Source of the DNA: Lingula anatina
Taxonomy: Eukaryota > Animalia > Brachiopoda
Assembly (NCBI GenBank): GCA_051362555.1
Contig: CM120642.1
Location: 32,364,001-32,428,000, forward strand
Length of the DNA: 64,000 nt
Direction: 5' to 3'
Below, one piece after another: positions 12,236 to 50,771 of the stretch. The first letter of the stretch is position 1. Each line of letters starts with the position of its first letter. Position numbers and translations under genes: made by a program. The notes below the pieces were generated by a model. That model saw only the letters and a list, made by a program, of their open reading frames with translations. It had not been told where the DNA came from and did not search any database.

Positions 12236-15200
12236 CATGTGAACACACAGTACATGTGATTGTCTATCTTATCTGCTGTGACAAGTGAACTATAGAAGTA
12301 AAAGAGTGACTTGAATTACACATACTGTGATGTGAACATTTGCAGGCACATCTTCTAACTATTGTGATGTGAATCAAGGTTGAATACAGATTGTATGTTT
12401 TATCAGTTCACACTGGGTGAGTTCACAGTGAAACTATTGTACTCGGTAGTTCAAATTAACTCCATGGAGACTTTTGCTGAATGCAATCAGATTAAAAAGA
12501 TTAGCACGCCTCCTCTTGTTTTCAGTATACATGTATAATCAGCTCTAATCTACTCAAGGCCAGGAGGAGGTGTGTTCATCTGTTAATCTGGCTGCATTCA
12601 GCAAGAGTCCATGGGAAGTTAGTTCCAACTACCTATTACGATAGTTTCACTGTGAATGCACTCATTGGCTTACCTCATTTCATAATCTTTACTGATAATT
12701 TCAGCCAGTGTTTCCATTGGAGGAAACAACACATGGTTTATGACATGGATAACACCATTCCCAGCCTCTTTATCCTGTTTGATCATGCAAGAACCCTCTA
12801 CAACCACACCCTACAGAATAAGGTTTTATGTCTACAAATGCAAGAATGAAGAATGAAGCCAAATATACATAACCACGTTCTATAGAATGTGGCAAAATCT
12901 AGCTCTGTTGTCACATCCCATAGAATGGGGCAAAATCCCCACTGCCACACTGTATACGAAGAACAAGGCAAAAATCTCTACAACCAAAGCCTATAGAGTA
13001 TAGAATAGGGAAAATCTTGACAAGCTTCTCACAATTTTCCTGGGAGAATAATTTCATTCCATGCACCTCGGAGTAAAGGCCAATATTTGCGAATATCTTT
13101 CAGCTTCGTGCTTAACAAAAAGACACCTACAATCATGCATTTATGGATGATCATGAGAAAAATGTCACTTCTTGTTGTTATTTAAAGATGTTCAATCTGC
13201 AACCTGTGGCTGTGTTCATAAATAAGATATTTGTGCAAGTGAATTAATTGTCTGTTAACATGTAAAATGATCTGGCAGATTGCTAAAAAGTGACTACAGT
13301 GAAAACTGCTTTACAAAAATACATATAGCCATGCATAATTTAACATTTCAGTCTTTCTCTGAAGCAATAACAAAATCAGTATGCATCTGAGTTACAAAAC
13401 CATTTTTAAGGTTAAAATACTTCTTTTTAAACTGAAATGACCAAATAGTAGTTCATAATTGTTAAAAGCAACTCATGCAGTTTCTGGTGAGTTTTTGTTG
13501 CCATTCACTGTGAAAACAAGGAAATATTCAGACAGGTTCCTCACAAAAACACATTACGAGACTGTGAGCACATAGTCATCGCAGCAATTAATCAAAAATT
13601 TCAAAAACACCAACTTTTTGCAATACATCTTGTTCCCAAGATTTATTGTTTGTTTTACTGCCAAAAACATACTTCCTGATTCATGTAAGAAACCAGCATG
13701 ACTATTTCAATAGTTTTATTAATCTTTGCCAGATATTGAAAATAAGATTGACAATATGTCAAACACACCAGTTTCTTACAATTCATTAATTTCCCCAAAA
13801 CATATGATTTTATTCTAATAACCAAAGCATACTTCCTGATAGGAATACAACTTGACTTCACAAACTTTTCATTAATCATGTAATATTTTCCAGATTTTGC
13901 ACAAAAAAATCAGAGAATGTCATACATCAATCCTGTTTGAAATTTTGTGTAAAATTACTGCAGGGTTTCAGTGACATTTTGAGATATACAATTCATTCCT
14001 CGTGAGACCGTACCTCAAACACTCATCTTCAGTCATGATCTCATCCAGAGTTTGTTCTGGAGGGAATATCACACGGTCAATTATGTGGATAACCCCATTG
14101 GCTGCCTCAAAGTCTCCCTTTTCAATACTGGAGGCCTCTATACTGGGTTGCTAGGGTTACAAGCATAATACTAAGCAAAGCTGTTGTTTAACATCTGTAA
14201 ATTATACAAATTACTCTGAACTGTTAATGCCTTTAAAAAGTTAAAATTCAACCAAAAGTGTTAATGGCCTGAACTGATCATTTGATGTACTTATAAGAAA
14301 GCAGAGCCTTTAGTTGTTTAAGTAAATAAAAAGATGGTTAACAGTATAACAGGAGAAAATAATAATTAGGTGTACACACATACAAATATTTATATTAGTT
14401 AATGTGCAAAATAAAACATGTATAAAAGTGGTTAGCACATGCAAAACAAACCACTTCAATCCCTACAATTTTGTATTTCATAATAAATCAAGAAATTACT
14501 TGAAAATGTTGAAAAGATGGATAATTTATTATAAAGATGATGAAATATTTCTGATGAAGGAAACAGAAAATGCAATAAAAAAAAATGAAAAAGTGACAAA
14601 CTGTGTACCAGATTCTCTTTTAACCTATACCCCAGTATCTGCAAACATATACAAAGATAAGTAATAAAGTAATGTGTAAAGAAGAAAAACGACATCTTGA
14701 AGTTTCTATGACTATCACTGTGAACACTATGAAAGTGAAAAACTAAGATCACAAAATCAGGATGACAAATACAAACTGTGACAATATTGTGAAAAGCCCA
14801 AGGGATTGTGAAAACTTCTCATCCTTTTCAGATAAGCTCTTTTCACACCAAAGATGGACTTAAATAATAATTAGGGTCAGGAGAAGGACATTTAATACCA
14901 ATCCCCCATCCCATCTCTACTTGTGAAGATATTAAAAAAAAAAACATTGTGCAATTTGGGACACATTGCAAATTGTGGTGATGAGAAGAGACATAGGCCG
15001 CATTCTCAACGAATTGAGCCAGGCTTTACAAATCCTGAGAACTAAAAATGGCGGACGTACATGAAAGAAAAAACGCCTAATCTTTTAATAGTCTCTCCGC
15101 CTCTCACACGCCTCCCCACACGTCGTCCCTGCGGGGTACAGTAATTAAATCTCTGCTCCGTTCGCCTTGCGGAAGCTACCTGAGAAATATTAAGTGCGCA

Positions 15201-16415
15201 TGCTCATCAGTTAAACTCGTGGTGAAGAGAGCATGTCGGCTGAAGGCGATCGAAGGAAAAAAGCTCTTCTGTTCTATTATCTTTCAAAACAGAGACAAAA
15301 AAGAAATGAATTGGCCCGTAGAGCAGCAATGAATCGACTATCTACGGAAATAATATCACCAGAGATATTCACAGAGATATTCACAGAGATACCCAGCCCC
15401 AGTAGACGGAGCCGAGATTTAATTACTGTACCCCGCAGGGACGACGTGTGGGGAGGCGTGTGAGAGGTGGAGAGACTATTAAAAGATTAGGCGGTTTTTC
15501 TTTCATGTACGTCCGCCATTTTTAGTTCTCAGAATTTGTAAAGCTTGGCTCAATTAATTGAGAATGCAGCCATAGACAACCTGTCCTAACAGTATGTGCT
15601 GTAACTTACTGCTCTGTACACGTTGATCCTCAGTTTCCGTGGATACAACTTGGTGTCCACCGTGGTGTCATCCACCAGTTGATTGGACATGATCTTACCA
15701 AAACCAATGTGGAAATTCAGCACATTTCTCAAAAAGTCTTTATCTGAGTTTACTTTGGCACTTCTGTCTCTTCGCATTGCTGGGAAAGAATTGTGAGTTC
15801 CACTGTGTTAGTTGTACTGGTTGCAATCAACAGATTGTGAGTCCAAATCTTCTCTACCACATTTGGAGACTAGATCACTTTTGCTCTATCACACTACTGT
15901 AAACCTGAGATATTGTGCGTTTACATATATAGTTTCTAACACTGACAAACTTTATTTGAACATATCAGCAGAAAGCACATTTTACCCTCTCTACAATTTT
16001 AATTGCCAGGTAAAAATACAGGTAGAGACTTGAAATACAGGTTAAATTACACATTTCTGCCATTAAAATACCAAAACTGTTGGGGTTAACTTATATGGAA
16101 ATCAATGAAAACAAAACTACTGATTAAAAAAAAAATCATTTCTCACCACTGAAAGCATAATCACTGGGTGCAAAGAGTGTATATGGGCCAGATGAATACT
16201 TGGCCAAATCTTTGTCCAATCCAGCTTGCTTGAGCAATTTCACAAATGTCTTTAACCCAAGTTCTTCTGCTCTATCAAGCAGGGTTTTAGCTGCAACCAA
16301 ATGATTTTCTTCTCAAGAATTTGTCTTCTTTAAAGATATATACAAATCAAATGTTCACTCTAAAGTGAAGAGAAAAGAAATGGCAAAGAATTTAAACATA
16401 TTGCAAGTGGACTTC

Positions 16416-16475
<60 letters not shown>

Positions 16476-19400
16476 GAAATTAAAAAAGGAGACACGCTGT
16501 TACATGTGGTAAAAGGATTATTCATTCTTACCTTCCACTGGCATCAGAACAGTATCAATCATGTGAACAACTCCATTAGACGCTATGATATCTGGTTCAA
16601 CTATTCTTGCCTTCAGTTTGTTAAGAGTGACGCCACTCCGGTCACAGTCTGCCTCCAGTTTTGAACCTGCTAGTGTTTTCAACGTCTGCTTGCGAGTAAT
16701 AAAGTTAGAGCAGATGGTACCTTTCACAACATGGTGCTGGAGAATTTCTGGAAAGAAAAAATTCAACCATATTAAACTTTTACAGGATACAGGCCCATAG
16801 GAACAGGCGGAGGTTCAAATTAGCCACACTTCTGGCTGGAAAAGGTCTGCTCAGATTCAAAGTTTTACCAGAGTTCTAAGCCTTTTCTCCAGCCGGTAAA
16901 AAGGTTTATTTCTTCAAAATGAAAAAAAAACCTTTATAGATGAAAAAAATGAGGGCTACAAGTCCAGCTTTTGTTTTTATTCTGCAGTGACAGCTTACAT
17001 ATATTAAAATAATCAAACACATCAAACAATCAATATGCTCAGCTTCTATAGACTCTTACAAAAGAAAATAGATGTCAAAACTGAAAAAAAAGTTCAGTGC
17101 AAACAAATGAAAACAGTAAGTAAATGTTTATTTGCTATCTTGTAAAACAATCTTTTTCCATCTCTCTAGCCATGCAATTTTAAAAAGACATAAGCTTACT
17201 AGTCAGCGCCTCTGTGTTAGCGAGGATATTAGTCAAGACCTCAGATGGGATCTTCTTGAAGGCATCCACGGTGGGGGCAAAGACGGTAAAGGGTCCATTT
17301 CTCATCAGGGGATCTGTCAGCCTGGTTCTGGCTATCAGGTCTTGGAGGGTCTGCAGGCGCTTGTCTTGGTAGATGATATTAGTGATGGTTTCTGGGTAAC
17401 GATCTAAAATCTTGTCGATAAGATGGATGATGCCATTGGTTGCAGGGATGTTGGGACGAGTTATCCTGGCACAATTGACAGTGGTGATCTGAATGGAACA
17501 AAAATGTCCAGCACTGAATCAATCCTTTGGTAATTGAAAATCTGTCCATGTGTCTTTATAAAAATTGAAGCCTTAAAATATATCAGCCTTACTTACTGGA
17601 CAAAACTTCAACTGTGAAACTAGTCCATGCTTTCATTACTTCTAAGCTTGATTATCGCATCAGTCTCTTATATGGTTTAGGCAAAAATCATCTGAACAAA
17701 CTTCAATTAATTCAAAAATCTGCAGCTAGGCTGGTAACTAAAATGGGATGGAACAGCCGAGAGCATATAACACCTGTTTTGATGGAACTTCACTGGCTTC
17801 CGGTTAGAGAGAGAATTTTATTTAAAATTTTATGTGTCATTTTTAAAGCAGTCACTGAGAATAAACCACTTTATATCTCAGAACTTATGAAGCAACATCA
17901 GCATGGAAGAGTTACCAGGTCTTCAACTTTAAGTCAATTTCTTTTAGAACACAGTGTCTTAGAGAAAAAAGCTGGTAAATTTTATGGTGAAAGGGCATTT
18001 ATGATATATGCACCCAAAGTTTGGAACACCTTACCCTCTGAAATACGAGCAGCAGGTGACATAGATACTTTTAAAAAGCTTTTGAAGACTCATATTTTTA
18101 GAATAGCCTTTCAGTAACTATCATATATTTAATTTTAGTTTTTAATAAGGTGTACTGTAATTTTATGATTAATTTTAAATGTTGTCACTTAAGTTTCTTA
18201 TCATTTTAGAATATGAAATAATTGGTTCTTTAAATTAGTTCTTAGTCCTTTAAAACTGTAATGTGTTCTTATACTAGTATTGTGTTATTTAGCTTTTTAA
18301 GTGAATGTTGTAAGGCGCATTGAGATTTTTAATGGAATGCGCCATAGAAAAATAAATTATTATTATTATTATTATTATTATTCATTACCTTTCAAATTCA
18401 TTACAACTGAATCACATTCCCAATCTGGATGCACCAATGAGCCTGATTTAAATTTTCATAAATGTACACCATGCTGTATGTTTCAACCCTTGTATCAGTC
18501 TCACTGAAAGTACATGCAATTCACTGTTCTTAATTTGATGTATCTATTGCTATCGATTAGACTTAAAGCAGGAAAAGCTCTGAACATTTGACGCTTTTCC
18601 GATTAGTTGTTTGAGAAATATTTTCCAAATCCCTGATGGAGGATTGTTGGCCACTCAGCACATGCTCACACTCACTCCAGTTTCCTTGTTGTTGACGACC
18701 ACCTTTCCAGGAATTGCCAGTGTCTCCAGTTCAAGTTCATCATCAAAGTCTTTCAGCTCTACCCCATTCTTTACGACATGGTACTGGAAACCTGGGTGGA
18801 AAATGTTAAATTTCTCATTATCTACTCAATTTGTACTTCAATCAAAATATTAATTCAGGCTGATAACAGTTTTGATGTAAAAGTTATATTAAAAGATTAT
18901 ATTTTACTTACAGTAGTTCATTTTTATCATTTTTTATGGTCACACACAAGCATAATTTGATATTTTATTTTTCTACAAGTCAAAGACCCAATGTCTCATT
19001 TAATCTTGTACAATGAATTTTTTTCAAATTTCATCTATAACTATTTCTTTAATCTGCATATCGTATGACTGTAAAATAAGTATATCATGAGTAATCATAC
19101 CCACATATCGATATTTCAAGTTGGCAGCAAAGTCTAAAACCAATGATCAGTACATGTAAAAGATCAGAAACTGATTAAACCAAAAACTTCAAATATTTGA
19201 TGCACATATAATAATCGTTAGGACAAGGTGACAGATATGCCACACCTTGACTGGTCCTAAGCCTTCTTCTGAGGTCTTTACTGGTCTTGTTGAAGACCTC
19301 ATTCACTGGGGCAAATAAAGTGTATGGTCCAGTGCGGGATAGTGTATACTGGACACCAGAATACCTGGCAGCATTGAGGAACTCTGTGGCACCAACATCA

Positions 19401-22400
19401 GCAAGTGTTTCCATCAAGTCTTTGAGGGGGGTGGCTGAAGTACACAAGGAAAACAGAAGTAATTCATAATAAATTCTTATTTTCTTCATCACTTCATTAA
19501 TCATCTTACAATCTATACATCTTATTCAAAATACCAGGGCTATCAACTGCAAATTTGCTTTTTTGATTTTCAAACCAACTGTTACATAAAGTTGAATAAC
19601 ATGCACACACACACGCACACACACACGCGTGCACACACACACACACACACATACACACACACACACAGAGAGAGAGAGAGTCAAATACTGACATTTCATT
19701 CAAAGTTTACCTTTTGAGCACCCTGGGTAGCCAGGAATTTTTTCATAGCCAATACAACAGTCATACTCTTTGTATCTGAAAATATGAAAAGGTGGAACAT
19801 TGTTTATTTGTGTTAAAGTATGTAATTGGGTACATGTATATGACATAAAGTTAATGTCAAAGATATGTTACTTTGCTTGGACAACTAGTAAACACAGATA
19901 TTTTGGTAAGCCCTTGAAGACACATAATAAAGGAAATTAGTAATAGATTTTCTTCTATATGCAAGTTTATCTAGAAATTGGATAAAAGGATAGAAAAGGC
20001 AAGGTTGGCAGTGAGCAATAAGATAAAGTATTCAATGCAATCAAAATCTATAAAAATTTTTAAAAATAAAAATATTTCAAACTAATAATTTAACATTTTT
20101 ATCTTGAAAGATGTGGGAAAAGTATTTCACATTTAATTTGTCACTGATTTATCTCAACTAGCTGTTTGAAGAGGGCTAACCTATTTGAGTAAAACTTTGG
20201 ATCAAATGAAAATTGCTAATATTTGTATACACGCCAAATGTACGTTGTACCAGTACTCGTATACATTGATATCTAATCAGTTGATTTTCACATTAAAAAC
20301 ATCTGATATTTCTGCATGTGCCCAAATTTTAAGCCAGTTTTTACCTGACATCTTACCCAAGCAGTCTTGAAGGAATGTGGTGGAGGGGGGGTGGGGGGTG
20401 GGGTGGGGGGGGGGGGGGGAGGACAGGTTTGAAAAAACCACCCATTTGGGAAAAGAATCACTCTGTTACAAAATTCTGTCTAGCTTCTACGATAACACAG
20501 GTATTTCACGGTAAAAAGGTTGACTTTTTCAGGAGAAACGGCTTTGCTATTGCTGGCTACAGGCCTGCTAAGTAAGTTGCATGTCTAAGCATACAGTGGG
20601 TATCACATGCTGCAACAGGTACTTGTTATTTACCCAATAAACAAGGTACATGATTACCGTCAACTGGCATTTCATCAAGCAATTTCAGCTACATAGTTAG
20701 GTTTCTTTTTTTCAAAACCATCTACTAGCTATACTGCCCGGTAAGCAGCAAAAATTACTGTTAAGATCACCTGTCTTAAATCTAACTTCTGATCATTACT
20801 GGGATTACTTCAACTCTACCAAATTTTTAGCACGTTATTACGACAAAAATTCAGTTCTTTTTTATAAAAAGAAATTGGATTTGCATTTGCTTCTTTGAAG
20901 TCAGGGAAATAAATAAATTCACTATTTGATTACATTTTCCTTCAAACATTTGCTATATTAGTATTTGAGCCAACAAGTCTTGTTCAGTCGCATTTACAAA
21001 ATACAGCTGCACTGGGGGTCTCCACATTGACAAAATCTGACTTCTAAGCCAAAAAGAAGAACTTTTCTATACTTTTCACAAGTTTCTAAGTACATATAAA
21101 ATCTCTGTACATTTGTATTCAACAAATACAGAACTGATGAAATAAGAACAAAAAGTAGTAGGAATTTCACACAATTTTGTTCCAGTTTTTTTTTGTTTGT
21201 TTTGTTTTGTTTTTTTTTATTTAGTTTGTTTTGGTTTTCTTAATCACTGACAAGAAGAGTTGACTTAATTAGAAAAGGAAACCTATAACAGGATCAATCA
21301 ATTAACAATGTTGTGCAACCTCCCCGGGACACATCCTGACAAATATACAAACACAGCGTCTCTTCCGTCTCTTCCGGAACCCTCCAGCATTGCCTTACAT
21401 GCACTCTTATTACAGGGTCTAGACTCTACGTCAGAGTATAACACGTGCAATTTACCAAAGACAGTCCAAGTAGTCTGAGGATTTCTAGAAAGGTAAAACT
21501 GCAGTAACATTTTCATAAACTATTGTACTTGTTTGGTTAATGAAGCCATTGTCAAATTTTCAATTCTTGTGAACTTAACTTCTTAATCAATTACAAAAGA
21601 TGGAAATAAAAATGAGAAATTAATTACTACATCATCAAGTGACCCAAAACAAACTGCCTAGTTAATAGTGTATCACAATTACAGCTGCAGCACTTAAATT
21701 AAGGACATCAAAAAGCATTTCCCACTTAGTTGTAATAGATGAAAAAATAAACATCCACAGCTTGTCTGAAGGAAATACCCACTGGCACTGAAAAAAATCA
21801 ACAACATCAATTCAAAGAGGAACACAAAGTTTACACAGGGATGATGAATCTGAACAAATTTGAAACAAACCATTTTCAAATCGTTAAGTCATGAAATTTG
21901 GAAGAAACATGCTGCAATACTACGAAAAAGTCCATCTCTCTGGTGAAAATATGTTCCAATTATAGTTTGGTTTTGGTGGAATGCAGAACATGGTGCATAA
22001 TTTCAAGGTTAACCACATTTGTTTGGATGGTTAAACAAAACAAACATACATTGAAGCACTTGTCTAGATTTCCAATAAAATCAGAAAGCTCTTCCGTATT
22101 GCCATCAGTCATTTTCCTTGCACTTTCGCTGAGTTTTAAATGTTGTCCTTTCAATTACTTCTTTGAAATTAAACATAACAGAACATTTGGTGGTCCTATC
22201 AGGACATTTTGTTAGCTTTTTAAAGCTTAATTTTGGCTGCTCTTATCACTGTTTGGCATACCACACATCACTGAAAACAGTAATGGTGTAACCCCCCTGC
22301 TCATTTCAATAGAAAAAATATATGATAAGTACAACTGCAAAGAAGATTAGTCTCAAAAATGTACATTTTTAAGATTTAAGTGTTTGAAAATGGCACTAAA

Positions 22401-35249: not shown

Positions 35250-37563
35250 TCAATCTTCACTCTCTTCTTTATTCCATATCTTAGTCAGGCGCGGGGGTGG
35301 GGGCCTATTGGGCCTCTGTCTGATAGCACTGGCGCCCACCTGCAGGGGAGGAAAAACCGCCGACTCCACCTTACTGGGGACATCGATGGCACCATCTACT
35401 GAGCGCGTTCTTGGTCTCTGCCCAGGCCGCGGGGGTCTCTGCCCTGCTGCCTTTTTGTCACCTCTATCCGGGGTGGTGCTGTAACCTGATAACGTGTCAC
35501 TTTCAGATTGGCTTCTTTTGCTGAGTTTAGGAATTGTAACATGACCTTGTCCCAAGGTGGTTCTTGGTTTTGGTTTAACAGGTGTTCCACTCTCCTGGCC
35601 TTGACCTTGACCCATTTTTGACCGTGGTTTCGGCTGAGGTACGGTTCTTTCTGGTGTCCGATTTAATGGCGCACCATTGGAAGCTTGCTCCCCATCCTCA
35701 GAATCTCTACCATCAACTTTGTCTGATGTGGATCTCAGTTTTAAATTAGGTTTAACAGGCAGAGATGGCTTAAGTTTAGGAACTGCAGGCTTAGAGCTGT
35801 TACCTTCAACAGAAGCAACTACGGGAGAAGCTGCAGCAGCATCCTGAGGGACTGAACTCGCCTCTGGTCTCTTCCTTCTAGCTAGGATAGACTCTAATTC
35901 TGACATGTGAGATTCTCCATCATTGTTCTTGCGTACAGGCTTAATGGCAGCTATTGGTTTCTTTGGAAGATCTGGTTTGCTGCCTATGCCAACTCCTGGT
36001 TTACTACCTGAATCAATTCCCAATAAGACAGGGGGATGTTCTGTACTGTCTTGTTTCGTCTCCACTTGCTGGGTTTTTGGTTCATGCTTATTGTCAAACC
36101 CCCCTATATCAGTTGTTTGAGGGAGATGTAATGTTTGTCCTGTAACAGTTTGTTTTATTTTCTCTGGATCAGGGGGTTGCGGTCTAGGTGGTGGAGCGCG
36201 GTGAACTGGTCTGGAGACTTCAGTTGCATCCTTTCGTACCCTCTTTGTGGGAATTTTCACAAGGCGAGGTATCACCCATCTTGTGGGGACAGCAGGCTTC
36301 TCTTGCCTCTTCCTTATTATAGTTTTAATTCTATGAGCCTCTAGGTCTGCTGTGCTGCTTATCAACTGTGGGCCTGATATCTCAAAACTCTTCTTGCTGG
36401 TAGCACTCTCTGGGCTTGGCAAATCTGCCATTTCTATCGACTGGTCAGGTTTTTTGGGGAAATCAATTTTCGGCACATTGGGTTTTTTCTTTACCACTGC
36501 ACTGCTTGGGGAAAATGTTTTTAACTCTACATTTGCTTCAGGTGACTTTGGAGAAGACTTCTTTGTAGCTTTTGGAGCAGGTGGTGCTGGCCGTTTAGGC
36601 TTCCTCTTTAGCGTACTGCTCTTTGATAATTCTACAATGGGTGCCAGGGTACCACTTCCTGCCACACCTGATGATGTTGTTGTATCTGAAGCCAAGGTAG
36701 GTGGTGGTGGAAAATCTGAAAAATATTAAAAATATTCAACATGGTTATCTAATTCAGTTAAAGTTAAGATGAAAATTTAGAGTTTTCACTAATAAATTCA
36801 TCAAATTTAATATACCACTTAAAGTTTCTGGTGGAACATCTTTATAAATTTCATCTCTAACATTGACATTTTATTTAACAATAATTAAACAAAAGAAAAA
36901 ATGAACAGTCAATAATACAGCAATGAAAAACAAAAACAATAAACATTTTGAAACACAGTTTGAAACACAATGCAAATATGAAAATCACATACTTAAAAAC
37001 TGAAAAAACAACATGATTATAACATCCAGGCCTTCTACTCTGTACATTCTCCATTAAAATGAAGACCAAAAATATGATCAAAATCATTAAGAGGAAGCCG
37101 AAGAAGAAGAAGAGAACGAAGAAGAAATAGAAGAAACAGTGTACTTAACCATTATTTCACAATCAAAGCCATACTCACCAGATGATATAAATTCGATGTA
37201 TGATGCAGCAGAAACCCTTTGGTCATTGATTTGGTCAGTTGTCTGGTCAATGTCTCCTCTGCCAACACTGAGTTGGACATACTGGTAATCAGTGCTTTTA
37301 GGAACATCCTGGTCTTGGTCAATGATCTAGTGAAAAAAAAACTTTACAATGAGCATAAAGACAGTAAGTATACTTCAAAAATTGTACACTAATCTACATC
37401 TTTGTTTACTGTGTTTACAGTTAATTCTCATTACTTTCATTTTTGTTATATTTGATAAAATAAAAGATAATTCCACAACAAATTCATTTAGCTGACTTAA
37501 AAAGCATACATACTTGAGAAATCTGTCATAAGTATATTATGTGGCAACAACAACAACAACAAC

Positions 37564-37609
<46 letters not shown>

Positions 37610-39322
37610 AGACGTGATGCAATTTGCCACACTTACCTCTAGGTAGGAACCTGGAAACCAGCCCTGCTTTTTGCCATGGAGACCAAACCACCATCCATTT
37701 TCCATGATCTCCGTGACAACAATAAGGTCACCTGTGTTAAAGCTGAGGTCACCTGGCAGCTCAGAGTGGTATGCATACAGGGCCTGATGCTCTAAAACAC
37801 AATTTGAAACACACTTCATCATTATAAATATTCCATTATAGCTCAAACACACAAGGAATACTCAAATTACTCTTAACTTCACTTGTAATAATATTGCAAA
37901 TTTTCAAAATTCAACATTTAATGATATTCTCAAAAACATACTGTTTTTAAACAAAAAATGTTTTTAGAGTTAAAACATTAACTCTAATAATTCTTTAAAA
38001 ATTCAGAGTCACTTTTTCAGTTTAATATATATTTAAAATGATTACTCTAGCAAATAGTAAAAAAATAGGGTAAACCTGACTTAACAGTTTTTATTTACTG
38101 TATGTTGGAATTGTCTGAATGAAATGTCATAAGTCTACATAGTATGAATACACAAGGATATATGACTGGTAAGTAATGGGAATGCTAAAGCTAAACCAGG
38201 TTTTTGGGCAACAAAAAACCTAGAATCAATATCCTTTAGGTATTAAAAAATAATCTAGTATTCAAAATTAGTTCTCACCAATCCCAATGATGTCCTCTGC
38301 ACCATGATCACGTTGTTGATTCCTCTTTAGATGTTCATATGCTTTGGAATACAGAGGTTCCATAACCTACCAATGAAATTGGAATAGATAAACAGCTGTT
38401 AAATTTCAAAAATTCTGAAACAATTGTCATGAACAAGCAATTAATCTAATGACATTCAACATGTTCTTCATATATCAACTACAACATGGAAAACCAAAGG
38501 CGACATGCTTTTAAGCTGTTATTAACAATAGTAAATCATTCAATTTTAAAATAAAGAAATGACAAAGTTTACTTGTCTAATTACATTATCACAGGTATGT
38601 GCTTAACTTGCAGTCAGGACGTGTTGAACTTATGCAGACATTCAATAATGAAATACCAAAACAAATTTATGGCAAAATAGCAAAAAGCAATTATAGTGCA
38701 TACTACACACAAAATTAACCTTAGCCACCATTCAGAACAGTGGACTAACTAGTCCATGGATCAAAAATGGCGACCCACTGAAAACCTTGCCATCTAATCC
38801 CCTTATAGACACTGAATAGATTCCTCGCAGAAATTAGGCAACAAGCATTCAAGTGGGTCTGCCATGTTTGATACACGAACCAGTTTATCCGCTGTTGTGA
38901 ATGGGACCTTAGATTACACACTTCCGTCTCAACAGACTGGTCATCCCCTCCAACCTCTTGGACGTAACTGGACGGGAACCAGCCCTCCTCTCCAGAGACG
39001 TCCAGTGTCCCCCACATCCAGTCCTGCTGGTGATCTACAGCCTTCACTACTATCACGTCCCCTTCTGATAGCTCCAGCTCTCCAAACTCTGCCGCATGGT
39101 ACGGGTGGAGGACTTTGTAATACTTTTCCTGAATAGTTAAATGTTCTACATGTTTATAATGTATTAATATTGTTATTGAGTATTCCCTGCATATATATAT
39201 ATGTGCATGCATATAAAAGATGCAATGCAAGAATCCAAACAGTGAAGCAAATCAAATCATTTGAGTCTTGATCATGTCAAATCTAAAAACTGATATTCAA
39301 TAACACCAATGAATTTTGTTTT

Positions 39323-39391
<69 letters not shown>

Positions 39392-42300
39392 CTGTCTCTG
39401 GTTTTGACATAATGGATTCTGAAACCTCTAAAGATTTTCAACTTACAACTGTTAATACAACAATTCATTTGTTCCTTACCCTCTCTAGGAATATGGTGTT
39501 ATCATTAACATAGTCATTATGTGGTTGTTCTGTCTCCTGTTTGGTTTTCTTCTTCCCAAAGGTTTCAGCTGTAGTCTCAGTATAACCATAGTTAGAAATG
39601 CCTGTGGTTATAGAATAGAAAATAAAACAATAGTTTAATAAGATGAAAGTCCATAACAAACGCCTTCTTTTACCTCATTAATTGAATTTTGATGCAATCA
39701 AATGAAATGCAATACTCAGTACTGCTATTAGCACAAAAATTCATGCATCAGCATGCCTATTTACATTTTCTGACACACACACACACACACACTGTACATG
39801 GTAACACATGAAAAAAATGTGTAAATAACTGTATAATGACCACCAGCCAGCACAATCCATACCTCTGCTTCCCTTCACCACTTCCACATAATTGCCAGGA
39901 AACCACCCCTTCTTGTTTCCCAGTTTTCCCAGCCACCAGCCACTGTCATCCCGTTCCAGCACATCAATAAGGTCTCCTGAACACAGGGAGATCTGATCCT
40001 CTGCCTGGGATTTATATGGGTAAACCACTTCATACTGATTCACTACTGGAATGACACAAGTGATACCATTACTAATTTGACATTCGAAATTTTCATAAAT
40101 TCTGACCTTCCTGCTGGTCATTACTGCAGTAGACATTTTCCAATATTTACTGCACAATCCATCCAGATATCTTCTTAATTCATTTTTAAAGCTAAACGTA
40201 GACGGTAGAAGTAAGAAGGCCATTCACTGCAGCAAGTCCCTACTGCACACTCAGCACAGTGAAGATTGCATCTGTTTTTCTTTTCTTTCTTTCCTTATTT
40301 TTTGTTAAGAATGTCTTTTTCACGACCACTCATGCGGCAGTATACTTTTGTGCGTTTTTCTTCTGTTAAATATAACTGCAAAACTTAATGGACATGAAGT
40401 AAAGAAAATTTTACATCATGGAATTTCGCCAAAGTGATTGCTTTGGTGGAAACTGGAAAAGATCGGCAGTGGAACTCAGCACTTAATGAAAATCAAACGG
40501 TTCGGTAACAAACAAAACGCAATATTCCTTCAAATATTATAAATAAAAGTGCTCAAAAATCAATAAACCAACCACTTTTCGGAAGTGTTCCTATTTAGAC
40601 CTAACCACTAACGTACTTCACGGGCGCTGTACGGTCCAGAGCAGACTCCTCAATGTTTACAATCAGTAGTCGCGTGGTTCCGGTTTCAAGAATTGTGGGT
40701 ACAATATCTAGGTCAAGTTATAGAAAGGTAAAGGTCGAATCGGTTTGCAATCTTGTAAAACTGACTCAGATTCACATCTATCGATGCACAGCAGTGATGT
40801 GACCATGAAATTACCAAGGTTTTTACAACGAGTCACGGGCATTCGAAAGGTACGCTATGTCGGATTTTGAACTTAAAATTTCCTATCTACATCGTCACAG
40901 TCGGTGATCGAGTGAGTGACTGAGAGCATTTGTTCTCTAATAATTCTAATATTCAAATGCTTTGCAATTTGTTTATAAATGTTTAAAAAAATCGATGCTT
41001 GCTATTTATAGTCAAACTTAAAGAAAGATTTCTAATTAAAAGGTGGATTTCTTTATCTCATTTGTTAGTATGTTACTGCGTTTGTTTAAAACTTTAAACC
41101 GAATTGTGGCGAGATTTTATTTAATTATTTATGATATAAGTACAAACGCATGACTTAATTTTCGTGCTATAATGGAGCCTGAAAAAAAAATTACCTCAAA
41201 TTTATATATATGAATGTAAGAACTATAATAATCAAATTATTCCATGGAATTCCAACTAGCTTTTATATACTTTTCTTTTCTTTTCTTTCTTTCTTTTTTT
41301 TTTTTTTTTTAATAAACAATTTTTATCATGTCAATATCTCTTCCTTGCAGAGAAGGGAAAAAATGGTCCTAGAGTCGAAAAAGCAAGATACTTCAAGAGG
41401 AAATAAGCTTCTCAGAGCATACTGGGAGCCTGTCAAGAAGGCATGCCTCTCAGCACCCCAAAAGGGTGGTATATATGCAATAGGATTACGAGGTTTTAGG
41501 CATCCCATTTATATTGGACAGTCTAACAACATCAGAGACAGACTTCAAACACACTTTAGAAAGTCTTCTAATGTACAGGCAATAGACAAATTTGTTAACA
41601 TTATACCAAAGAGATTATTCAAGGTAAAATATGTGCAGGACAGGCACCATAAAGATTATGAAGGAGTCTATCTTGCACACAATCTGAAACACACAGGATC
41701 ATGGCCAGTGTTTAACTTAAAACATGGAAATAGTCGAAAGAAAAAGAGCTTCTGGAAATTTTGGGAATGGTGAAGACACCTTTGATTATTAATAATGTGT
41801 TAGAGGACATTTTACATGGTTCAGATTACTTCTCATCGGTCACTTGGCCATATTCATCCTGGCTTGATGTAGGTAATTGCAGGTGTCTATAATACAACTC
41901 TAGATAAAAAAAAAATAAATAAATAAAAAAAAATTCCAAGATCCACCCTGAAATTCCACCCTTAAAACAAATGTGTGTACATAATATTCTGTTATTTATA
42001 ATTTATTTATTTATGAGAGAGTGAGAGAGATTGGACTGTATAGTGCCTATAATTGGTAGTATATGGATGTGGCAGCCTTTTACTGAATTCCAAAAATGTT
42101 TCTATTTTGATTCCACAAATATGACTTGTATTGTTTAGATGCCATCTGAGAGCAAGTGATGAAAGTCTATTCACAGTTACAGAAAAAAAAAATTAGTTAC
42201 CTTCAGAAGTTCCTTCTTCTGCATCCAAGGGGCTGGAAATGACTTCTTTAGATAATTCTCTCCCAAAATGTCTGCCAGGTTTATGTATTGGCTGAAAAAC

Positions 42301-44437
42301 ATAATAAATATAAAATGAACCTTGTTTCTGTTTTTTTTACTATAAGATTATAAATGATTAATTTACCTTTATAACATACTTCTTTTGCACCAAAAACAAA
42401 AAATCCTGCTTTATGGCAAAGTTACTTAAGCGAACAACTGACCAGTTTATAATAACCAATGTGACAAACAATTATCAGAAAAAAAAACTCCAAAATTAAC
42501 CAATCCATATAAGATTCCATTTCAATAAAATACAGTTGGTGACAATTTTCACAAGTACACTCTATAATGATCTCAGCTAGGCCAGCTGTAGATGTCTACC
42601 TACATCTCGATATCTCCGCCTCCTACAGCAAATTATGTACAGGACACCTGCCGTTACCACTCCTATCAATACTACCACCACAGGGACTGATATCACAACT
42701 GCTGTCATCTCTGGGGACAAACCTGGAGAAAATTGTTCACAAGACACATTTAGCCAGATGATTTACAATAAAGACTTACAATAAAGAATGTTTATATAAT
42801 TTATTACAATCAATTCCAGCTCTTTTGAATGGAATTATTGTATTCAATAAGTGTAGCAGAAATACCTGACAATGTTTATTTTTAAAAGGCATTTCTGCTA
42901 CACCTGTGTGGAAAATACTATAAAATAAGTCATTCACATTTCAATAATGTGATGTCATTAATTGCAGAACATGTCTAAGAAATGCAATGCACAGTTAACT
43001 TGCCATGTCTCAAGCAGTCATAAAAATTCCATCTAATCTATAGGCATAAGAAATTCACTTTAACAAATATATCACCTTTAAATTTGAAAGATTATCATCA
43101 CTTTACAAAATACTTACAAACAGGTATAAAAGTCTAATCTACAGGCATAAAAATTTCACTTTAACAAAAATTTCACATTTAAATTTTAAAGACTATATTC
43201 ACTTCATGAAAATACTTACAAATAGGTTCAAAATTCTCTTACCTGTCTGTGCTTTGACTATGGTGGCATTACTCTCTGTGCTACTAACTGGGAGACTGGT
43301 GGTGAGTATTGGAGTACTGGAAGACTGGGTAGATGACCCCTGGGTACTGGCTGTTGACCCTGGGGTACTGGTTGTTGATCCTGGTGTACTGGTTGTTGAT
43401 GATACTGTCGTTGTAGAGGAAGTTGATGATGATGTTGTTGTTGTGGATGAACTAGTCATAGTTGTAGGTAATGTTGTTGTTGTTAGTGTCATAGTTGTAG
43501 GTAATGTTGCTGTTGTAGTAATAGGTGCTGCTGTTGTTGCTGTCATAGTTGTAGGTGCTGTTGTTGTTATTGTAGTTATAGGTGATGTCACTGTTGTTGA
43601 AGGCCTAGTAATATTTGTATCTGAAATTGTTGTTAATGACAATGTTGTCATTACTGTAGAACTTGAAGATGAAGATGAAGATGTTGTAGGTGAAGAAGAG
43701 GTACTGGTAGGAGTACCTGTAGTTATATTAGTTGTTGGGGTTGTAATATCTGTGGGTGTCACAGGCACAGTTATAGGTATTGCTGTTGTTGTCGCACCTG
43801 AAGATGAAGTTGGTGGCAAAGTTGTTGTTGTTATTGTTGTTGTTGTATTTAAAGTAGAAGTTTCTGTAGGCAATGTTACTGTTGAACTTTTTGGTGACAA
43901 CACAGTTGTTTTTGTAGTTGCTGTTGTTATGGAATATGAAACAGTTGTACGTAATAAAGAAGTGTCTGTGGAATTAGTTGTTGCTGTCAAATTATTCACA
44001 TTATCTTGAGTTGTGCTGTTGCCTGCAGCTTCCCTTGTGATAGGTACGGTGGACGAGGTGCTGGTGACAGCCGTCTTTCCTGTAGTTGTTGTTGACAACT
44101 CTGTTGCCATGGTTACAGTCTGATTCACAGCATTCTCACTCGGAGTTGAAGCAGTTGTGGCAGTACTGTTAGCCATTGTTGTTGTTGTTGTTGTTGGCAT
44201 TTGTTGACTGGTCTGTTTACTGTTATCAGTACTTGTTGTTGCCATGGTAGTGTTAGTCACACTTTCCAGAGGCGCAGTTGTCAGCGAAGAAGAATAAGAC
44301 TCATTAACTGATGGTGAAGCCAACGAAGTTACAGTTAAGTTAGTGTTCTCAGTTGAGGTGAAGTTACTGCCTCCAACAGCAGTGAATGGTGTTGTTATAA
44401 ACACAATACTTAACCAAGTTAACCAGTACAAACTCAT
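35250..44437 (-). CDS. Predicted type I membrane protein: mucin-like ectodomain + TM + three SH3 domains + Pro/Lys-rich tail (~1257 aa, 10 coding exons)
   Basis: Exons 44437-43243 (signal peptide and Ser/Thr stalk), 42722-42604 (TM AVVISVPVVVVLIGVVTAGVLYII-CCRRRR), 42291-42201, 40045-39863 (SH3: YPYKSQAEDQISL..GWWLG..GWFPGNYV), 39601-39480, 39128-38922 (SH3: GWFPSSYV), 38366-38279, 37791-37637 (SH3: ALYAY..GWWFG..GWFPGSYL), 37326-37179, 36715-35250. All junctions GT-AG and in phase (3774 nt). Individual exons are high confidence; the 42201-to-40045 join is the least certain. Alternative in-frame ATG at 44461. Confidence 0.75.
39326..39387. repeat. (TA)n microsatellite
   Basis: Direct reading. 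Confidence 0.95.
40805..41773 (+). CDS. Stand-alone GIY-YIG nuclease-family protein, 155 aa, 2 exons, nested antisense in an intron of the mucin-SH3 gene
   Basis: Exon 1 40805-40849 (accATG, MKLPRFLQRVTGIRK, donor aag|gtacgc); exon 2 41351-41773 (acceptor ttccttgcag), phase 0. Motifs P-QKG-GIY-AI, IYIGQS, NIRDRLQTH, YEGVYL, WPVFN. AATAAA at 41914. Confidence 0.8.
43032..43227. repeat. Diverged ~101-bp tandem duplication next to the mucin exon donor
   Basis: tctaatcta.aggcataa.aa.ttcactttaacaaa...aaaatacttacaaa.aggt twice. Confidence 0.8.
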
Positions 44438-45204
44438 GGTTTGGAATGTTAAAGCTATCATCTTCCTATAAAGAATCATTGCTAAGTAATGGGAGCATAC
44501 AAATATATATATAAACGCTGAAGACACTGTTATATAATGTGGAAAACTTATCAAATATGGAATGGTAAATACAAAATGGAATGCTTAGGTAAACTGTCTT
44601 AAAAATGTACAAAAATATGATTGTCTGATATACTTAGCTTTTCTGCAAGACTAATTTGTAGACAAAAATTATTTGAGAAAATCACATTGATACGAATACC
44701 ATCTCTATTTAACACTGTAAATGCACCAATCTATAGTTTTGTCTTGTCTCTTTTCATCAACAAGATAACAAGGCATCTCTGGATAACCTCTAACCTCATA
44801 TTTCATACACTGCTTTGGTTCTTTCCAACCTAGTCAATACATTGCAAAAAGACCATATTAAAGCCACAAAATAATTACAGCAGTTTCACTGTTACTGTAT
44901 GAATCATCACTTGCCGTGACAGCCAGAACAACTGCAGAAAGCCTCTTTCTCTGGTGGCTGGTCGCAAACAACTTGTTTTTCTCAGTGTCTAAAACGGAGT
45001 CAATATGTTTCACAGCTGTCCTCATTCAGTTGAAGTGTTACTTTGCTACTTTTAGTCAACCAATTTGATTATTCTCTCAATGCTGCCAGCACGATCTATA
45101 CTGTCTATGCATTTCTTTGCCATCTTAGTGCAGCCAACATATTCTGTTGTTGCCTAAATGCAGGCAACTTTTTTTTTGTCAATGTAAATAAGTCAGAGTG
45201 TTTA

Positions 45205-48300: not shown

Positions 48301-49589
48301 TTATATGTTTGTTCAGATATAATAGCTGTATGCTCTTGTGCACTGTTAATATTACTCTGAAGTGGTTTTAGATGGTATACACTGTGCTGTGCAAGCACAT
48401 GCAGGTACAAGTAAATAAGAAGTAATAATAAATAACATGTAAAAGATGTGCAAAGTTATTTTTAAAAGGGTTTATTTATATAAGTAACTATTTGAAGCCC
48501 AAATTTTAGAGATGTATGAAAAGCCACTTAGAAAAAATTTAATAAGAATTTTTTTCAGTGTGAAGCTATTTGCATGGCCTTGCATTTAGTAAGTATAACA
48601 TTTAAAGTCACTCAATTCCTGCTACAATACCAGGAGGGTCTAAGCCACGCCCTTTTGGTCACCTTTTAAAGGGATAACAACAGTTTGCTTTGGTCGAAAA
48701 AAATGATTTTCCTTGAGTAAATGACAATTACTCCATACTTCCCAATGGATAATGATTCCATTCTGACATTCAAAGTTAGTCCATGATTTTTTTTTTTTTC
48801 GTCTATAATTTTTTTTTGTTGAAATTATCTCTTAAGAGATTATTACAGAGGTGCATATAATCGTGATAATCACTGTTCTGGTGTTAAAATGGAATTTAAT
48901 TATTATATTTCTATGATTTGTTAACAATGTTTTTATTGAGAAATATGAATCCCATATATATGGCTATTTTCTTTTTAAATAGTGAACTGAATTAATCAAT
49001 AAAATCCTCTGCGCCCAGATTTGCAAAATAATTACTTCTTCTTTTCAGGTAATAAAGGAGGAATATAGGCTTCACATCTGTACAAGGTAGTTACATGTTC
49101 TTTAAAACGTACTAGTAAATCTCATGACTGTATTTATATTACATATTACTTATTTACTGCTTTCTAAATGACTTTCAGTGATCCAAATACAATGTACTAA
49201 TTCATTTTCACAGACGCATATGCAGCCCCAGAATGTGAATATCTAAGTCAATAAAATATAATTTGTGTATACCGACCAAAGAAAACTAGCTTCTGTAATA
49301 TGTGACCATTAATTAATATATTTTCGATGAGCCATGCTTATATAGTAAATTGTAATGAAAAATAAGTGAATGAATAGAAAATTATTTGATTATCAATGAA
49401 CGATCCCAAGCCCCACGGTTTTGTTACAAAGGTTAGTCAAACAGCAACAAGTTAGTAAGAACAATTCGTTTTACGAAGGTTATAATTATTACACTATGGT
49501 TCAGACTTACCGCAAATCAGAGAATGCTGTTGTTGTGATCCATGTACTTTTATCTCTTCAATTGATGCTGCTGATGAGTGAAAATCATA

Positions 49590-49745
49590 TTAAACGGTGT
49601 TTTCTCCATGTACGCTGACACGAAAACGAAACTCCACTTCCGTTTTACTTCCTGGTAACTGTAAAAGCCCCACGTGCCGTGTAAGGAAAAGCGAAAACAC
49701 AAGTTATCAAGACCTGACACGACAAGTGAGTTACGGTAAGAACTT
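49590..49745. promoter_or_regulatory. Candidate bidirectional promoter between the mucin-SH3 gene and the protease inhibitor gene
   Basis: Local CpG enrichment, ETS-like cacttccg and acttcctg, cacgtg E-box, divergent donors (minus gtaagt at 49510, plus gtaaga at 49736). Confidence 0.5.
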
Positions 49746-49977
49746 GAGAACGAGTTTTTAACGTAGTGTTGAAATGTGAATAATTCAGCACATTTTCTAT
49801 GTATGATATTATTAAAAGTAGAAATATAAATACTTGGAATATTATATGCATATTAAATTAATCGTCGGAATAATATCAAGTTCTCCCCCAATTTTTACTT
49901 TCAGTTTCTGTCACCGTTCTGTCTCATACACTGTAGTTATAATCTGTGGGAAGTCAACGAATATTACCTGTACAAGG

Positions 49978-50771
49978 ATGTCAGAGCAAGAAGAATGGAC
50001 AGATTTAGTTGGGAAAGTAAGTGTTATATATGACACGCTATTATATACAGCTTACCCTGAGCTTCAGAGCTTGAAACAAACCTCTACAGTATAGCATACC
50101 CTTGCCGTTTCGCTATAGTGCAGATGTTTGTTTCAAGTAATCTCTGAAGCTCAGGGGGATGAAGCTGTGCTCGACTGTCCTTTGAGCAGTTTATCAATCT
50201 ATAAGCTGCTTCAAATGACCTCTGTAATAGCACACTTGTCTAACATGATGTGAAAACTAATCAAATTTGGTAAAATATTTTTATGTGAATTTAGTAATTG
50301 TTCCATATTTATTTCATAATATTTCAGTTCATATTCTTTATAATTCAATTATCAATTTTTATTTTCCAGACAGGAGAAGAAGCTAGAGAAGTTATCAGTA
50401 AATCAAACCCAAACCTCACTGTAAGTGCTTAGTTAGCATTCAGATTTTTCTTCATTTAAAACAAAGGATCGGCAAAATAAACTGCAATATTTTGTAATTA
50501 CTTGTAAAAAGAAAACTGGAAAAAATTAGACACTGTAGAATAATGCAATGGGTGCTGTAGTAGTTAGGATTGCATGAATAAATAAAAAGTTTTATCTGTC
50601 AAAGTTTATATTTTATATTTATATATTATATATTTGTATTTTATATTTAATCTATTTCAGATCCAGATTATTCCAGATGGCTCAATGGTGACAATGGACT
50701 ATGTTACAGAACGTGTCAGGATATTTGTGGATTCTGAGGGCAAGGTTGTGCGGCCACCTCGTATGGGATAG
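49978..50771 (+). CDS. Potato inhibitor I family (I13, eglin c/CI-2-like) serine protease inhibitor, 66 aa
   Basis: Exons 49978-50016, 50370-50420, 50661-50771 (all phase 0): MSEQEEWTDLVGKTGEEAREVISKSNPNLTIQIIPDGSMVTMDYVTERVRIFVDSEGKVVRPPRMG, with W..LVG, VTMDY and RVRIFVD..G.V...P..G signatures. AATAAA at 51145. Confidence 0.93.
50048..50167. repeat. ~120-bp imperfect palindrome in the first coding intron of the inhibitor gene
   Basis: ccctgagcttcagag / ctctgaagctcaggg, cttgaaacaaac / gtttgtttcaag, tatagc / gctata. Confidence 0.75.

Follow-up and report, generated by a model that had tools for sequence, protein, structure and literature searches.

A 64-kb stretch of Lingula anatina DNA (the window) carries, antisense within an intron of a host gene, an intact gene for a 155-residue protein with a single GIY-YIG nuclease domain. 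We found relatives of this protein in scleractinian corals and abalone. Together they apparently form an animal sub-family, so far without a name, within a well-known nuclease superfamily, and the interesting part of this sub-family is the variety of its targeting ends. The gene marks a further group of animal GIY-YIG proteins that is UvrC-like in fold, is labelled 'uncharacterized' and has been kept under selection in three or more phyla. We tentatively predict, at somewhat below even chances, that its product is a host-encoded, low-specificity DNase whose ends re-target it, likely in defence against foreign DNA.

Structure and expression of the nested gene

The 155-residue reading frame consists of two plus-strand exons joined across a GT-AG intron (Table 1). 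An initial sequence-only reading had described an intact protein with GIY, YIG, Arg/His, Glu and Asn positions, and this was borne out by the sequence and by two RefSeq models: the catalytic set, i.e., G55-I56-Y57, Y69-I70-G71, R79, H83, E119 and N137, is complete. LOC106176112 (Lingula anatina, 155 aa), the sole match of a first word-indexed search with the nuclease protein, differs from the window protein at 3 of 155 positions. LOC112042511 (162 aa) differs at four over 155 positions and has a seven-residue extension. None of these differences is catalytic and both models share the exon junction of the window gene. The 90% cluster of the nuclease is made up of these two uncharacterised entries, which are 97–98% identical to the window protein; they are 97% alike and may be paralogs or alleles. 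Within the window the gene is present in one copy.

Table 1 Features of the nested nuclease gene and of the surrounding host gene, in window positions
Feature	Position	Strand	Description
Host exons with first two SH3 domains	38900–40045	−	Pfam SH3 E=4e-13 and 7e-11; read joints
Host intron holding the nuclease gene	40046–42200	−	2155 nt; neighbouring introns 261–520 nt; read joints in 4/4 runs
CpG-rich patch	40250–41250		Likely internal promoter of the nuclease gene, unmethylated (putative function)
Alternative in-frame upstream start	40784–40804	+	Adds 7 residues, giving a 162-aa form; start context weaker
Nuclease exon 1, coding part	40805–40849	+	15 codons; basic amphipathic leader with no acidic residues; leader same in both RefSeq models
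Nuclease intron	40850–41350	+	501 nt, phase 0, GT...polypyrimidine...CAG; bridged by RefSeq models
Nuclease exon 2	41351–41773	+	Entire GIY-YIG domain and basic-aromatic C-terminal tail; internal ATG 41363
A-rich tract with two AATAAA	41906–41933	+	Possible polyA signal, or what is left of an old polyA; weak
Host TM exon (42604–42722) and juxtamembrane exon (42201–42291, 91 nt)	42201–42722	−	Read joints; open reading

Both ends of the transcript are less clear-cut than the sequence-only reading had them. The start at 40805 was called Kozak-like; ATG 41363 likewise lies in good context and would yield 136 aa, and the first seven residues of LOC112042511 agree at 6/7 positions with the reading from the in-frame ATG at 40784. 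A polyA signal is indeed present twice (hexamers at 41914 and 41922), but both copies fall within the 28-nt A-rich tract and are weak evidence because AATAAA occurs in 28% of local 200-nt windows. The statement that neither reverse transcriptase (RT) nor TIRs or LTRs flank the gene held up: we found no TIRs or terminal direct repeats in 39900–42400 except A/T-rich chance runs, and, the nuclease ORF aside, no plus-strand ORF of at least 110 codons inside the host intron. An Rfam scan of 39500–42500 gave no match.

RNA evidence was taken from the reads of four of nine listed runs, three of the four being stranded. The reads confirmed five minus-strand host introns, among them 40046–42200. The proposed antisense nesting in a receptor intron was thus correct, but the gene does not lie in a TM-to-SH3 intron. 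It sits one exon downstream of the TM exon, in the second of the introns that follow, with the 91-nt juxtamembrane exon intervening. Over nuclease exon 2, RNA depth was about 1–4 and the reads were of opposite strand to the host in all three stranded runs, which answers positively, at low depth, the stranded RNA-seq check that had been suggested. Exon 1 was covered at a depth of about 0.5 in runs X1 and X7, and depth was near zero in the intron bins 40856–41317. In the four runs, at these depths of about 1–4, none of the listed read joints spanned the intron of the nuclease; for this reason its splicing, described earlier as spliceosomal, rests on the RefSeq models joining across it and on the near-zero intron depth. 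Expression was low in 4/4 runs, which fits DNA upkeep as well as defence.

CpG o/e was 1.04–1.29 in three 500-nt windows across 40251–41250, compared with 0.28 as the median of the 64-kb window and 0.30 in the host gene body, and this patch near the nuclease 5' end had the second-highest CpG count among 127 windows. The ratio was 1.26 over 40450–41200 and 0.19 in exon 2, which shares its CpG depletion with the host gene body. The patch is likely an unmethylated internal promoter and exon 2 likely a long-resident coding exon; alternatively, the patch could be read as a young CpG-rich insertion. Lying inside another gene is nothing out of the ordinary, and functional relevance of the nesting is without support.

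Domain architecture and predicted fold

GIY-YIG proteins are defined by a GIY and a YIG motif upstream of an Arg and a Glu, with His and Asn in addition (PMC1564403). By its motifs and its predicted fold the Lingula protein can be assigned to this superfamily. Pfam PF01541 matched exon 2 with E=4e-4 and 21 bits, just below the cut-off of 22.6. The same family was found in 28/28 family members at E<=0.05, with P0001, the RefSeq Lingula protein 98% identical to the window protein that we used for modelling, again just under the cut-off. AlphaFold2 with a 28-row alignment gave a P0001 model of mean pLDDT 87. Its best VIA fold match was UvrC-N (Z 9.7, rmsd 2.1, 83 residues), followed by the AtGRXS16 N-terminal domain (Z 9.5), T4 endonuclease II (8.3), R.Eco29kI (7.9) and I-TevI (7.2); At-HIGLE and Slx1 scored 2.9 and 2.5. 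The first seven VIA rows were all GIY-YIG chains (Z 9.7–4.1), the next row had Z 3.4, and Foldseek was concordant. The model of a relative, P0004, matched UvrC-N with Z 8.7. A homodimer prediction for the nuclease scored 0.01, which does not bear on its oligomeric state.

The domain leaves little room for other modules, as it ends near residue 138 with 17 residues following, and GIY has no more than about 50 residues in front of it. The protein is strongly basic (pI 10.8), its sole Cys is C47, upstream of GIY, and the exon 1 leader has the top hydrophobic moment in the protein (0.75). At the C terminus (41741–41770, plus strand), a basic stretch is followed by five aromatics in seven residues; this end has low model confidence and is without counterpart in the other aligned relatives. 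It presumably resembles membrane-binding tails.

Comparison with known GIY-YIG proteins

UvrC-N and Cho are closest to the nuclease, with the best fold match, the best NCBIfam and PDB sequence matches and a Tyr/Arg/Glu/Asn set common to both. In contrast to UvrC, however, the nuclease has no Cys4, UvrB-binding, EndoV or HhH domains and scored 27.6 bits against a cut-off of 818; moreover, it is encoded by a spliceosomal gene, has an extra N-terminal helix, and its family has swappable targeting ends. With 155 aa, no C-terminal UvrC or Cho domains and NCBIfam scores far below the cut-offs, it was rejected as a UvrC or Cho. The tied-best fold, the N-terminal domain of the plant chloroplast protein AtGRXS16 (93 residues), is likewise a UvrC-like domain in a eukaryote, but it is fused to glutaredoxin, the profile match reached only E=0.23 and a sign of orthology is absent. 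T4 endonuclease II and R.Eco29kI, which are sequence-selective oligomers, resemble the nuclease as stand-alone domains with an N-terminal extension. They provide a model for a bare domain working in conflict, although they share only 13–15% identity with it.

Prokaryotic stand-alone clusters of 110–127 aa (PF19239, DUF7508) have the same size and a single domain, with language-model scores of 0.94–0.96; they rank first among the look-alikes by language-model features, without alignment, and the Pfam scores are weak and below cut-off. PADLOC matches (PDC-S14, UzuA) shared the GIY-YIG core only and are uninformative on function.

Known animal GIY-YIG proteins were compared in the same way. Penelope-like endonucleases (ENs) have the GIY-YIG core with R, H, E and N in animals. 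Animal Penelope-like ENs and the stand-alone Terminon ENs are described with a CCHH finger and two Cys between GIY and YIG (PMC8557442), whereas the nuclease has no Cys in this interval, only C47 before GIY, and no RT in the host intron; we hence rejected this assignment. Chlamys ENs also lack the CCHH finger, but are reported in that source from outside animals. SLX1 and ANKLE1/LEM-3 are, like the nuclease, nuclear-encoded animal proteins. We rejected SLX1: the nuclease with its one Cys has no C-terminal RING finger, and the motif-E Asn, absent in Slx1 (PMC1564403), is present (N137) and conserved. The fold matches to Slx1 and HIGLE were far below the 9.7 of UvrC-N, although such weak Z values are compatible with kinship. 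ANKLE1/LEM-3 (COG3680) was rejected as well, with no ankyrin or LEM found and Pfam giving only GIY-YIG families for P0001. A GIY-YIG homing endonuclease was rejected for lack of room for a C-terminal DNA-binding module such as NUMOD, for a host intron that is spliceosomal rather than group I, for the empty Rfam scan and for 21.8 bits against a cut-off of 56 for TIGR01453. Domain content, fold and flanks thus agree with the stand-alone, UvrC-N-like host gene, distinct from SLX1, ANKLE1 and Penelope, of the sequence-only reading. Its accompanying statement that minimal single-domain forms are typical of bacteria, phages and viruses needs a qualification: RING-less Slx1-like eukaryotic GIY-YIG proteins exist, one of them from Schistosoma (PMC1564403). 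In the part of its table considered here, this 2006 survey assigns the eukaryotic proteins to COG3680, to Penelope, to the Slx1-like group or, in a few cases, to homing-like forms, and none to the UvrC-like group.

A family in corals, abalone and Lingula

The nuclease is not confined to Lingula. An exhaustive family search with unrestricted length gave 38 matches, i.e., 35 relatives (116–279 aa), P0001 and two proteins that were dropped, the fungal TPR protein P0028 as a non-member and P0035 as a non-member with 30 bits on the family profile. Named relatives came from Haliotis rubra, Desmophyllum pertusum and two Montipora species; most relatives in the clusters looked up or listed were unnamed. 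Haliotis rubra had five proteins with near-consecutive LOC numbers and a shared longest contig, Montipora had several paralogs, and the metagenome loci L001 and L002 held two family copies each. Strong family matches were found in 17 of 21 metagenome loci, with 33–41% GC; 16 of these 17 had no ORF of at least 150 codons, as expected for animal DNA. In 16/17 relative ORFs with upstream sequence, many of them near-copies, an AG acceptor lay immediately before the first codon. The family hence seems to be laid out as a leader exon followed by a single exon for the domain; in Lingula the acceptor lies 11 codons upstream of its place in the relatives. In the open-access literature searched, essentially main texts, we found no description of a GIY-YIG family of coral, abalone and Lingula.

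R, H, E and the YIG Tyr were invariant in 42/42 non-redundant members (<70% identity) and N in 40/40 with a residue at this position. The dN/dS median was 0.29, with values below 1 in 55/55 non-independent pairs from the ORFs of 11 relatives, Lingula not among them, and no sign of positive selection. Of the dN/dS and intron comparison suggested earlier, the former points to purifying selection in the relatives; in the latter, the intron position is not identical.

The members vary at their ends. Hydrophobic, signal-like leaders occurred in 7/73 proteins belonging to two sequence groups, six of Montipora type and P0034, mostly together with long Ser/Arg/Gly-rich basic tails. CAIL (CaaX) ends were found in 2/73, both from abalone. 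Signal peptides and CaaX ends were called by simple rules and concern a minority of the 73 proteins. Among 6104 longer candidates we found no fused forms, which is weak evidence. Two pairs of Cys co-occurred across members (25/2/0/6 and 14/1/3/19), a pattern compatible with possible disulfides; on the tree there were too few contrasts, with only two supported phylogenetically independent pairs. The Lingula protein has no signal peptide, no CaaX end and none of the paired cysteines of the family.

Proposed function

In GIY-YIG chemistry, as known from UvrC-N and I-TevI, one active site with one metal cuts one strand. We predict that a single intact domain of this kind acts as a metal-dependent DNA nickase with little sequence specificity. 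Presumably, E119 holds the metal, Y57, Y69 and H83 take part in water activation and R79 steadies the phosphate. Such residue roles are partly given in PMC8557442. Because recognition, partner-binding and RT domains are absent, DNA would be bound loosely by the basic surface, and control would lie in the destination of the protein. Relatives may be re-addressed by signal peptides with cationic tails in Montipora and by CaaX ends in abalone. The Lingula form would act inside the cell, with the basic leader probably sending it to the nucleus or the mitochondrion. Its nesting would most likely be an accident of gene duplication into the intron, the gene having its own CpG-rich promoter.

Conflict effectors typically show a patchy spread, expand in tandem and swap their targeting ends. 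The catalytic invariance, the purifying selection, the local expansions, the signal and CAIL ends, the Cys pairs and the shortness of all relatives argue for the defence DNase proposed above. Against it stand the low expression in 4/4 runs, which were without known challenge, and the Lingula gene itself, for which two RefSeq entries, maybe alleles, leave an expansion unsupported. Moreover, the dN/dS values, taken from relatives, are without positive selection, the Cys pairs are not phylogenetically independent, and the signal and CaaX forms are a minority. Elsewhere, a defence role has been suggested for a GIY-YIG expansion in lungfish (PMC4764851), and a mussel GIY-YIG transcript was lowered by toxin exposure (PMC6215123); either may or may not belong to the coral, abalone and Lingula family.

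Extended to its full form, the proposal would be that marine invertebrates possess an undescribed innate-immune DNase family built on a bare UvrC-type GIY-YIG domain, of probably ancient bacterial or phage origin and re-addressed by exon swaps, i.e., secreted, disulfide-bonded and cationic-tailed in corals, prenylated in abalone and mitochondrial or nuclear in Lingula. As a whole we hold this to be rather doubtful. If true, animals would have their own equivalent of the single-domain restriction nucleases of bacteria, and it would include secreted GIY-YIG enzymes; of the latter we know of no described example. Defence DNases of this type would add to the cases in which animals have taken over a conflict nuclease of prokaryotic type, and would be a small, easily assayed effector class for coral and mollusc immunity.

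The strongest competing explanation, which we nevertheless consider unlikely, is a housekeeping nuclease that helps to maintain genomic or organellar DNA. Here the leader would direct the protein to mitochondria or nucleus, where it would nick damaged or branched DNA with a partner, as thought for plant organellar GIY-YIG proteins. Such a role is suggested by the closest folds (UvrC-N and the chloroplast AtGRXS16 domain), by UvrC and Cho as best NCBIfam families and by DEDD-exonuclease/GIY-YIG fusions as nearest bacterial matches. The amphipathic, basic and acid-free leader, the CpG-rich promoter, the low expression in all four runs and the purifying selection would also suit it, and a Nematostella transcript, known only by the label 'GIY-YIG superfamily', cycles daily (PMC4476465). 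However, there is no UvrB-binding, RING, LEM or other partner module, forms with signal peptides cannot serve in repair, and core repair genes do not usually spread patchily or form multi-copy arrays. If the Lingula form were organellar, it would bear on animal mitochondrial DNA upkeep.

We think it improbable that the family serves DNA clearance or scavenging, acting without an immune role on self DNA of dying cells, gametes or extracellular fluid, or on dietary DNA. Animals already possess DNase I/II and EndoG, transcript depth was low, unlike that of a bulk digestive enzyme, and the Lingula copy is without a signal peptide. Signal-peptide forms among the relatives speak for clearance, as does the bare catalytic domain shared with T4 endonuclease II, which breaks down bacterial DNA for base reuse (PMC1564403).

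Origin of the family

Equally improbable in our view is that the nuclease is cargo or an accessory of a mobile element (Crypton, Penelope/Terminon type or DNA virus), with the Lingula copy a resident or recently tamed insertion. It would agree with the whole domain on one exon, the unusually long host intron, the A-rich tract after the gene and the patchy spread. Moreover, a 474-codon Crypton-like tyrosine recombinase ORF (DUF3504, QRICH1 and integrase matches) lies at L001:6472–7893 between two oppositely oriented family copies. However, no Crypton match was found in the other 16 loci or in the 64-kb window, and 16/17 loci had no ORF of at least 150 codons. Terminal repeats were absent from 39900–42400, and with no Cys between GIY and YIG there is no Penelope-type CCHH finger. 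Exon 2 is CpG-depleted, and the AG acceptor abuts the first codon in 16/17 relatives.

Searches of viral and prokaryotic sequences gave at most distant matches. In tblastn with P0004 and P0001 against phages and P0024 against plasmids we found no matches at all, and three of five scans of viral contigs were empty, the other two giving weak or partial matches (E 2e-5 to 5e-4); a full-length match to a viral contig or phage was not found. Prokaryotic genomes gave three partial matches in one search, and 28/401 and 2/401 genomes had matches of at most 44 bits in others, mostly longer fusion proteins with a DEDD-exonuclease/GIY-YIG fusion on top. On the family profile, members scored 75–175 bits, some of them having trained the profile, versus at most 44 for prokaryotic or phage matches. 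The 35 best family matches were animal-named or unnamed and none was prokaryote-named. Language-model look-alikes were small prokaryotic and phage GIY-YIG clusters, which we regard as leads only.

Trees were built from 59 of 119 matches, a set without Penelope, SLX1 and ANKLE1 rows. In a quick tree the family formed one clade with support 59. A careful tree had four label changes and the one-change topology occurred in 0/200 bootstrap trees, but a one-clade family was not rejected by the AU test (p-AU 0.268). The Lingula branch was long (~0.9–1.0). On the placement that the sequence-only reading asked for, in bacterial/viral versus Penelope/SLX1 clades, coral and abalone relatives are closest by score, and the trees do not settle monophyly; the superfamily phylogeny in PMC1564403 likewise failed to resolve.

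Recent acquisition of the Lingula gene by horizontal transfer from a bacterium or virus, unconnected with its coral and abalone counterparts, might account for the long branch and the split family of the careful tree, but is very unlikely in view of the animal-named or unnamed best matches, the gap in profile scores, the AU result and the CpG o/e of 0.19 in exon 2. Of the earlier proposal of a domesticated or horizontally acquired nuclease, a recent event is thus very unlikely, no close prokaryotic or viral relative having been found in these searches, whereas the family may have an old prokaryotic or viral source, on which the trees are undecided.

Host gene and further features of the window

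The host gene (35250–44584, minus strand) has a long Thr/Ser mucin-like exon, one TM helix and at least two Pfam-confirmed SH3 domains, and further a third SH3-like ORF (37526–37861) and a long Pro-rich exon (35250–36725). The reading frame stays open through six joined host exons, with a hydropathy peak of 2.87, in the order mucin-like stalk, TM helix, short juxtamembrane exon and SH3 domains. Several cytoplasmic SH3 domains in one TM protein make for an unusual architecture.

Few host-strand reads were seen at 40394–40701 in the CpG-rich patch (depth at most ~1 in X1, 0.3 in X2). They may stem from host pre-mRNA, or from divergent transcription at a two-way promoter, which could give an SH3-only isoform without stalk and TM helix. 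Beside an SH3 exon, a deep short stretch (38729–38872) with many loose ends and strand-switch joints is likely a small multi-copy inverted-repeat element. Two further CpG-rich patches (15001–15500 and 49501–50000, o/e ~1.0) are probably other promoters. ORF pieces at 17180–19525 (minus strand) carry what we take to be fasciclin-like motifs, and a 182-codon ORF at 17569–18117 (plus strand), ~22 kb from the nuclease, presumably resembles the C-terminal part of a LINE-type ORF2. Most RNA reads aligned to 38700–43300 were just 90–95% like the window. Repeats and junctions account for part of this, and the donors of the RNA may belong to diverged populations sharing one species label.
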